The position numbers were made by a program, and so were the translations under genes. DNA of 3,334 nucleotides. Origin: Escherichia coli (GTDB lineage: Bacteria > Pseudomonadota > Gammaproteobacteria > Enterobacterales > Enterobacteriaceae). The notes below the pieces were generated by a model. It was not told where the DNA came from. It made no database searches and was given only the letters and a program-made list of their open reading frames with translations. Shown one piece after another: positions 1,002 through 3,334 of the stretch (positions are counted from its first letter, which is position 1; the number at the start of each line of letters is the position of its first letter). The stretch lies in the NCBI RefSeq assembly GCF_003334785.1, contig NZ_QOWV01000051.1, one strand, 5' to 3'.

Positions 1002-1029
1002 TTGACATTGGTTTGATGCGCTGTACAAT
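1002..1029 (+). promoter_or_regulatory. Near-consensus sigma70 promoter, rightward, presumably driving higA with a roughly 170-nt leader
   Basis: Seen in sequence: -35 TTGACA (1002..1007), 16-bp spacer, -10 TACAAT (1024..1029). Predicted start near 1036. Confidence 0.5.
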
Positions 1030-1094
1030 GCCGGGGCCTTGAATTTCACATCAAGTACCCACATCATAAGGAATGATTAGACGCACCAATGTGC

Positions 1095-1123
1095 ATCATA
1101 ATGTCATTCTTTTTTTTAGTCAA
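1095..1123 (-). promoter_or_regulatory. Near-consensus sigma70 promoter, leftward, candidate higB promoter with a roughly 220-nt leader
   Basis: Seen in sequence on the - strand: -35 TTGACT (1123..1118), 17-bp spacer, -10 TATGAT (1100..1095). Predicted start near 1087. No better promoter was found closer to the higB start codon. Confidence 0.45.
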
Positions 1124-2696: not shown

Positions 2697-3053
2697 CTTC
2701 CGTTGTTCTCCGTCAGTACCGGGTGTCGGGTGGACCCTGACCAGGTGGTAATTGTAAGACGTTGCGGGCGACGGTATTACAATTGCACATCCTGTCCTGT
2801 TTTTTTAGGACGTATCATGGCACAGCATATCAACTGATAAATAATCCCTGTGCAGTGCAGCCGCTGTTGCATAAAATTTCGCTCTGCGTCGAGTGTTTCT
2901 TAATCAATAATTCCGCTGATACTCCGGAAAAACGCGAGTCTGTTCTCATGCCTGAAATGCCCACACCCCACGCAAAAACAATTTTTTGCTGATTTTTCTT
3001 TATAAATAGAGAGTTATGACAAATTAGTTCTTCTTGCTCTCTTTGTGATATTT

Positions 3054-3102
3054 AAAAAAGCGGTGTCGGCGCGGTGTTGTAGCTGCGCCAACACCGCTTT
3101 TT
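3054..3102. terminator. Long GC-rich hairpin flanked by A6 and T5: candidate bidirectional intrinsic terminator
   Basis: Seen in sequence: AAAAAAGCGGTGT (3054..3066) pairs with ACACCGCTTTTT (3091..3102); inner GGCGC (3068..3072) pairs with GCGCC (3085..3089). Could insulate the cer-like site from incoming transcription (inference). Confidence 0.5.
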
Positions 3103-3257
3103 AGGGGTGGTACTGACTATTTTCATAAAAAACATCATTTTATATTAGGGGTGCTGCTAGCGGCGCGGTGTGTTTTTTTACAGGACGCCCCTGGGGGCGC
3201 TGCTAGGGGTGTCTGTTCAGATATGTAGCAATGAGTCAGGGATTCACGAACTGAAAA

Positions 3258-3334
3258 TGTCCGAAAATGTGTCTCATGGGCACCGTATGCGCCCAAACCG
3301 ATCGCCATTCACTTTCATGCATAGCTATGCAGTG
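3258..3334. repeat. Terminal redundancy: exact 77-bp copy of positions 1..77, indicating a circular molecule of about 3257 bp
   Basis: Checked base by base: 3258..3334 equals 1..77. The window ends at 3334, so the match may simply be truncated there. Confidence 0.9.

Follow-up and report, generated by a model that had tools for sequence, protein, structure and literature searches.

The window analysed here, a stretch of 3,334 nucleotides (nt) from Escherichia coli, carries a HigBA toxin-antitoxin (TA) cassette in which the two genes are divergent, being separated by a 344-bp spacer. The toxin gene higB (583-864, - strand) encodes a protein of 93 amino acids (aa) that matches Pfam PF05015 (HigB-like_toxin, E=6e-15) over its full length (residues 5-93), retains its C-terminus (...EDYH) and is labelled a RelE/ParE family toxin in the annotation of identical plasmids. 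The antitoxin gene higA (1209-1505, + strand) encodes a 98-aa helix-turn-helix (HTH) protein that is recognised by the NCBIfam model TIGR02607 (HigA) at 96.3 bits, the cutoff being 47.7. Both partners expected of a HigBA system are present, i.e. a HigB-like toxin of the RelE superfamily (PF05015) and an Xre-type HTH antitoxin (TIGR02607); yet, while the two proteins are bona fide, the locus lacks the defining HigBA organisation of a single-promoter operon with the toxin first and the antitoxin next, as the genes diverge and are served by two predicted promoters that face each other.

The first of these promoters, P(+) (1002-1029, + strand), is composed of the -35 hexamer TTGACA (1002-1007), a 16-nt spacer and the -10 hexamer TACAAT (1024-1029), and matches the consensus at 11 of 12 positions. 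The second, P(-) (1123-1095, - strand), is composed of TTGACT (1123-1118), a 17-nt spacer and TATGAT (1100-1095), with 10 of 12 matches. An earlier note on this DNA had pointed to this very pair, and both members were recovered by our scan at exactly these positions. With transcription starts placed 7 nt past each -10 hexamer, P(+) is predicted to initiate near 1036 and P(-) near 1088, which corresponds to the facing-promoter geometry serving divergent genes that is found in the switches of phages 186 and P2 and in those of the Ecl18kI type. The region 1036-1088 would thus be transcribed on both strands, and the predicted 53-nt overlap of the 5' ends agrees with the complementarity of about 50 nt that the note had expected between the two leaders. 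P(+) and P(-) are the sole sites on the plasmid with at least 10 of 12 matches (0.53 expected), and a facing pair of equal quality arose in 0.2% of 20,000 dinucleotide-preserving shuffles of the spacer.

Conservation of this arrangement was assessed in 12 distinct relatives belonging to four lineages, the window being counted in lineage 1a together with Enterobacter mori pHSW1412-2 and two metagenomic variants. Lineage 1b comprises Erwinia amylovora pEAR5.2 and a Yersinia-type plasmid, lineage 2 comprises plasmids of 3.7-5.4 kb from Klebsiella, E. coli, Leclercia, Enterobacter, Cronobacter and Salmonella, and lineage 3 is metagenomic, with a HigB that is just 65% identical. All 12 display the divergent layout with a spacer of 336-352 bp, and all 12 retain both promoters: P(+) as TTGAC[AT]-16/17-TA[ACT]AAT, situated 177-181 nt before higA, and P(-) as TTGAC[AT]-17-TA..AT, in which T1, A2, A5 and T6 are invariant, situated 221-232 nt before higB. 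Changes within the hexamers are confined to position 6 of the -35 and positions 3-4 of the -10, which are the positions tolerated by sigma-70, and the predicted 5' overlap measures 49-53 nt throughout. The flanking sequence is heavily diverged, the spacer being about 69% identical in Erwinia, while in subclade 2 little can be aligned between the two starts. The shuffles together with the conservation, which exceeds what chance or drift would permit, rule out a chance origin of the promoter pair, as the note had argued from the near-consensus hexamers. Both promoters would be expected to fire in vivo. Scanning the spacers of the relatives revealed no further higB or higA promoter that is conserved in position, even at 8 of 12 matches; the Klebsiella and Leclercia plasmids carry a lineage-specific site (9-10 of 12) located 26 nt before higA. 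An inverted repeat, ACATTGGT/ACCAATGT (1005-1012 / 1085-1092), was considered as an operator joining both promoters and was dismissed since it is not conserved in subclade 2. Furthermore, neither 1002-1123 nor the rest of the spacer yielded a match to the Rfam covariance models (cmscan, E<=1), the sole strong match in the window being RNAI, and a search of 100,044 representative genomes with the 19-mer CCTTGAATTTCACATCAAG returned four matches, as expected by chance, none of which lies in a plasmid or TA context.

Beyond this clade the organisation is different. Eight HigB relatives at 42-56% identity (from Pseudomonas, Acinetobacter, Pseudanabaena, Pantoea, E. coli, Arsenophonus and two metagenomic sources) are encoded in ordinary single-promoter higB-higA operons with gaps of 0-12 nt, in keeping with the view of the earlier note that the arrangement is unusual for a type II system. 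Since these outgroup loci are canonical operons, the face-to-face layout represents a shared derived trait of one clade, within which HigA is 72-75% identical and its HTH is conserved.

The + strand downstream of P(+) is predicted to specify a short RNA of 82 nt (1036-1117), which begins with a small 5' hairpin (1038-1042/1051-1055) and continues through a linker into a long 3' hairpin that bears a tip hairpin; a U-run reaching 1117 comes next. The stem of the 3' hairpin (1068-1077/1103-1112) is embedded in the facing promoter, with its 3' arm and the U-run positioned inside the P(-) spacer and its loop carrying the P(-) -10 hexamer. This design is kept in all 12 relatives (79-83 nt, 5-8 U), and in each the predicted complementarity of the RNA covers the initial 49-53 nt of the higB leader. 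The earlier note had regarded the rightward transcript as the leader of higA; this stands in so far as transcripts read through the hairpin, while many probably end at the hairpin and U-run (1068-1117) as an antisense RNA of about 80 nt. Compared with shuffled sequences, the minimum free energy (MFE) of the RNA gives a z score of -3.8 for the window and scores between -2.3 and -5.7 for 11 of the 12. In 11 of 12 the + RNA also has a lower z than its complementary strand, owing to several G-U pairs. As alignment of all lineages with MAFFT scrambles the stems, the corresponding RNAalifold consensus was set aside in favour of within-subclade alignments, folds of individual sequences and a covariance model. 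The consensus fold of subclade 2 reaches -19.8 kcal/mol with three compensatory pairs, and the relative P0032 has a 14-bp stem, a U7 run and a z score of -5.7. A covariance model built from subclade 2 only matches the window end to end at 1037-1117 on the + strand (24 bits, E~0.002) and E. mori at E~0.04, and matches none of six canonical loci.

Several other features of the + RNA were recorded. The octamer GCCTTGAA at its 5' end (1036-1043) is unchanged in 11 of 12 relatives, including those in which the remainder of the RNA differs, and is absent from the P0032 lineage. A CCUUG in the RNA is complementary to the CAAGG of the Shine-Dalgarno (SD) sequence of a leader open reading frame (ORF) upstream of higB, described below, a match that is too short to call an interaction. 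A coding role for the RNA was rejected, given that an 18-codon ORF with a good SD (1073-1129, + strand) is absent from the relatives; the SD and start of this ORF (AAGGAATGATTA) mimic the higA start (AAGGTATGATTA, 1204-1215). Similarly, a YUNR loop motif in the 5' hairpin is confined to the subclade of the window and was not retained as a candidate.

Between the U-run and higA lie operator-like palindromes, TTGCGT-TA-TGCGCA-A-TGCGCA-A (1131-1152; core 1139-1151), which are the presumed HigA site. The consensus TGYGCA-A-TGCRCA, with an overlapping TTGCRY-N3-GYGCAA, is unique in the plasmid, and the core occurs in all 12 relatives at 21-23 nt past the U-run, its centre being located at -57 to -60 from the - start and at +108 to +111 from the + start. 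In the Erwinia and Yersinia-type relatives a symmetric double change yields TGTGCA-A-TGCACA. The 1-nt centre of the palindrome excludes an RNA hairpin and gives it the likeness of an operator for a dimeric protein, and HigA would be expected to bind at 1131-1152. Further downstream, immediately before the higA SD, a hairpin GCCTAT-N15-ATAGGC (1169-1195, + strand) has a counterpart in every lineage. Its stem is maintained with four unrelated sequences (GCCTAT/ATAGGC; AGCC.../...GGCT; TTTTGTAT/ATACAAAA; GTGGGA/TCCCAC) and with loops that vary from about 5 to more than 15 nt; preservation of the stem despite unrelated sequences argues for a transcribed RNA element and thus for a higA leader that starts upstream of it. 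The conserved SD and ATG give a HigA of 97-98 aa. Public HigA starts are mis-called in several relatives (L007 570-1052, L012 844-1326, L013 1087-1326); the 160-aa versions from Leclercia extend back over the palindrome and P(-), while the version from pMB6956_2 is truncated at 79 aa.

On the opposite strand, the long higB leader contains an ORF of 30 codons (842-934, - strand), whose SD (AAGGGG) is the complement of 941-946 and which ends 20 nt inside higB. An SD (AAGGGG or AAGGTG) with an ATG is found 68-70 nt before higB in all 12 relatives, the ORF comprising 23-30 codons and its stop being invariably placed at -2, +1 (an ATGA-type overlap) or +20 relative to the higB start, while the encoded peptide differs between lineages. 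These features suggest that the leader ORF is a translational-coupling device for higB. No other - strand leader ORF is conserved besides the one starting at 934. The leader peptides of subclade 2 and P0032 share RYRRK..GD, which does not occur in the subclade of the window and which could reflect either a constraint on the peptide or one on the nucleotides, such as the higB SD. Additionally, a block that is near-invariant across lineages, CCCCTTGC.yTATT....A.AA.TG.CGTA.GTT (941-980; alignments A2 and A3), includes the SD of the leader ORF and continues for about 30 nt into the higB leader on its upstream side; beyond the SD, neither a promoter nor a palindrome nor a stable fold was found that would account for the conservation of this block.

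On balance we favour the view that the locus is a rewired HigBA type II cassette, in which colliding promoters, read-through expression of higA, an antisense RNA of about 80 nt, coupled translation of higB and HigA autoregulation would act together, and the layout probably adds control of the toxin at the level of RNA and of polymerase collision. Transcription from P(+) would proceed over the higB promoter into the hairpin and U-run sited inside P(-), where many transcripts would end as an RNA of about 80 nt complementary to the first ~50 nt of the higB mRNA, while the remainder would read through the palindrome and the leader hairpin to form the higA mRNA. P(-) would yield a higB mRNA with a leader of about 220 nt, whose translation would be coupled to the short upstream ORF. 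The toxin may be restrained in three ways: by polymerases from P(+) that dislodge or occlude polymerase at P(-), chiefly when paused at the embedded terminator; by antisense pairing with the higB leader; and by HigA bound to the palindrome adjoining the P(-) -35 hexamer. Bound there, HigA would meet the front of a polymerase paused on the U-run and would lie just upstream of the P(-) -35, and on account of this position it could limit its own synthesis through reduced read-through (autoregulation) and damp the toxin promoter together. Sitting-duck interference dominates at promoter spacings of about 50 bp, and phage lambda offers a case in which a polymerase that pauses at tR1 occludes the promoter facing it, PRE (PMC5001618). 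Directly established are the elements present in the sequence, along with how they are arranged and conserved, and from these we infer promoter firing, termination at the hairpin, HigA binding and the direction of each regulatory effect.

A further reading, which we put forward tentatively, would make the locus a hybrid type I/type II module, with one near-consensus promoter providing both a cis-antisense RNA of about 80 nt against the higB mRNA and, by terminator read-through, HigA, and with HigA acting as a roadblock and the terminator as an occluding element. HigA located 13-23 nt ahead of the U-run would set the split between short RNA and higA mRNA and would damp the facing toxin promoter, and, as the terminator is embedded in the toxin promoter, a polymerase paused there would occlude it. 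If this were true, the circuit could be bistable, and post-segregational killing would be governed by two timers, namely RNA decay and protein decay.

A number of observations weigh against the rewired cassette as favoured above. The fixed spacings could partly result from a mere lack of insertions and deletions. The antisense target lies about 90 nt upstream of the ribosome-binding site of the leader ORF, a distance at which pairing would be unable to block translation directly, and a long-range structure of the higB leader joining the target to the SD of the leader ORF was rejected as MFE folds disagree among the relatives. The consensus fold of the subclade of the window amounts to just -5.7 kcal/mol, because L018 and Erwinia break the stem, and the 3' hairpin is weak in Erwinia (z ~0) and in the metagenomic L018 (z -1.3); termination may therefore be inefficient in some members, possibly including the window. 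The covariance model derived from subclade 2 misses the clade members L002, L018 and L019. Finally, the position of the palindrome, external to both core promoters, is not typical of a TA operator.

One alternative is a pure promoter-level switch, in which P(+) and P(-) would be the true higA and higB promoters, control would come solely from interference or promoter competition combined with HigA binding, as in phages 186 and P2 or in Ecl18kI, the RNA hairpins and the short RNA would be functionless and the + transcript would be nearly all full-length higA mRNA. The 52 bp between the starts correspond to adjacent, non-overlapping polymerase footprints, as in systems where interference alone acts several-fold (PMC5001618, PMC2760811), the terminator-like hairpin is weak in the two relatives named above, and a proximal higA promoter was not found, so that P(+) must serve higA. 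Nevertheless, we consider such a switch unlikely, as it does not account for a hairpin and U-run that recur in each of the 12 relatives, where the fold is strand-specific and the pairs show compensatory and G-U changes, nor for their position in a promoter spacer that is otherwise free of sequence demands and in which the run of 5-8 T is invariant. The opposite extreme would be a dedicated antisense-RNA gene, whereby P(+) would produce only a type I-like RNA antitoxin of about 80 nt and higA would be transcribed from its own unrecognised, HigA-regulated promoter within 1118-1208. The strength of the terminator in subclade 2 and P0032 would fit this explanation, as would the palindrome between terminator and higA, where an autoregulated promoter is expected, and the site found 26 nt before higA in the Klebsiella and Leclercia plasmids. 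This proximal site is, however, absent from the subclade of the window and has lost the critical -11 A in the common 5.4-kb family, the palindrome is not accompanied by a flanking -10/-35 pair in any lineage, and the stem before the higA SD behaves as a transcribed RNA element, which together render a dedicated gene decidedly improbable.

It is also conceivable that one or both promoter-like sites are inactive in vivo and conserved for other reasons, such as protein binding or RNA structure on the opposite strand, with weak or non-sigma-70 promoters being used instead. A consensus match alone is no proof of activity, and the constraints do overlap, given that each hexamer falls within the transcript or hairpin of the other strand. 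Against this, the hexamers vary just at positions tolerated by sigma-70, the spacers are maintained at 16-17 nt, the distances to the genes are fixed over four lineages amid heavy divergence and no alternative promoter is conserved, and we therefore regard inactivity as very improbable.

The rewired cassette combines features that are known separately from other systems. It shares with the canonical HigBA loci of Rts1 from Proteus vulgaris and of Pseudomonas aeruginosa the protein families PF05015 and TIGR02607, plasmid carriage and a plausible HigA palindrome. In canonical HigBA one promoter is located upstream of higB, higA follows 0-12 nt downstream on the same strand and the operators overlap the core promoter (PMC12266136, PMC6987408), whereas here the genes diverge over about 340 bp, the promoters face each other, the leaders measure 170-220 nt and the palindrome is outside the core promoters. 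The closest functional analogue is the Ecl18kI / SsoII-type restriction-modification (R-M) system, likewise an addiction module in which the protective partner binds an operator in the spacer (PMC2760811). In Ecl18kI the toxic R gene and the protective M gene are divergent, their promoters have been shown experimentally to be face to face, and competition between promoter complexes controls the toxic gene (PMC2760811). Its proteins are unrelated to HigBA, its operator and its M promoter overlap, the start of R is opposite the start codon of M, and an embedded terminator, a short antisense RNA and a leader ORF are not described there. The pR/pL promoters of coliphage 186 and Pe/Pc of P2 also serve divergent genes, are positioned face to face tens of bp apart, and display sitting-duck interference along with an HTH repressor (PMC5001618, PMC3675496). 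These phage switches differ in that they govern lysis-lysogeny decisions and possess neither a terminator inside the facing promoter nor a discrete antisense RNA from the overlap. In phage 186 the facing promoters are 62 bp apart.

Likeness to RNA-based systems was also considered. In hok/mok/sok of plasmid R1, a strong promoter drives a short structured antisense RNA against the toxin leader, and the toxin requires the overlapping mok frame. The present locus resembles that system (reviewed in PMC5812544) in its predicted antisense RNA and leader ORF; conversely, the hok product is a small membrane peptide with no protein as its antitoxin, while the toxin here is a 93-aa HigB of the RelE fold rather than a small hydrophobic peptide, and Sok pairs at the translation-initiation region of mok, while the overlap here falls at the very 5' end, some 90 nt ahead of the SD of the leader ORF. 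No sequence or Rfam similarity between hok/sok and the present locus was found. A parallel exists about 450 bp away on the same plasmid, where the ColE1 pair RNAI/RNAII also has facing promoters and a stem-loop antisense RNA of about 100 nt ending near the sense start. The RNAII promoter is assigned to TTGACT-17-TATCGT on the + strand (1543-1571), and the end of RNAI adjoins the start predicted for it. RNAI/RNAII differs in controlling a replication primer, in its overlap of 108 nt and in having no sequence relation to 1036-1117. Furthermore, there is one precedent for an antisense RNA that acts on a type II system, namely aMEF, which modulates mazEF; it lies opposite the coding operon, stimulates expression and has a poorly conserved promoter (PMC8749433), in contrast to the divergent genes, the two highly conserved promoters and the opposite sign of the effect proposed here. 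A literature search, which covered few subscription journals, returned no description of divergent higBA, of pEAR5.2 regulation, of hig loci on ColE1 plasmids or of this spacer.

The ends of the window are identical (1-77 = 3258-3334), indicating that it represents a circular plasmid (about 3,257 bp) whose sequence runs a little past its own start. Copies that are nearly identical, with lengths of 3,255-3,258 bp, are known from Escherichia, Salmonella and Shigella; among 5,426 complete E. coli genomes, 26 carry one, every time on a plasmid. One E. coli example of the 3,257-bp plasmid is NZ_CP019023.1. The origin is of the ColE1 type, RNAI being located at 1581-1681 on the - strand (Rfam, 91 bits). 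The unit of conservation is the cassette (window ~523-1505), whose placement relative to the origin varies among backbones. This compact (~1 kb) and self-contained cassette is present in about 109 PLSDB records and moves among differing small-plasmid backbones in Escherichia, Salmonella, Klebsiella, Enterobacter, Citrobacter, Cronobacter, Leclercia and Erwinia, the 3.68-kb Klebsiella/E. coli and 5.41-kb Enterobacter families being common. A hairpin terminator with a 10-bp stem including six GC pairs (1512-1536) is situated behind higA. Downstream of higB, past a hairpin at ~540-577, a strongly hydrophobic ORF of 50 aa (352-504, - strand) has no NCBIfam match, and small unannotated or hypothetical ORFs occur downstream of higB in some relatives too. 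Elsewhere on the plasmid, GGTGCGCGTAA-TGCGAC-GTTATGGTAAAT (175-203), in a region partly common to the relatives, is, by resemblance, a candidate cer/XerCD multimer-resolution site. A 64-aa ORF (2502-2696, - strand; MNKQQQTALNMARFIKSQ...) occupies the Rom/Rop position; an NCBIfam search with it gave no meaningful match, and the annotation of a neighbouring relative names a Rop family protein. A GC-rich palindrome at 3053-3128 with T-runs on both sides resembles a bidirectional terminator hairpin, its weak covariance-model match (E 0.15) being probably unrelated.

Textbooks present type II TA systems as a single autoregulated operon, and such wiring is taken for granted in models of conditional cooperativity and of post-segregational killing. 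In the clade described here the same two proteins are encoded by divergent genes, and colliding promoters are combined with an embedded terminator and probably an antisense RNA, a design that had so far been associated with phage switches, R-M systems and type I TA loci. In the literature searched, this conserved divergent architecture is not described for HigBA, while its individual mechanisms have precedents elsewhere; it would be unexpected to specialists in TA systems or transcription, and it is directly testable in E. coli. For annotators, the mis-called HigA starts that run across this spacer in several records serve as a warning. The cassette would offer a natural system in which interference, antisense RNA and protein autoregulation may be combined to silence a toxin on a multicopy plasmid.
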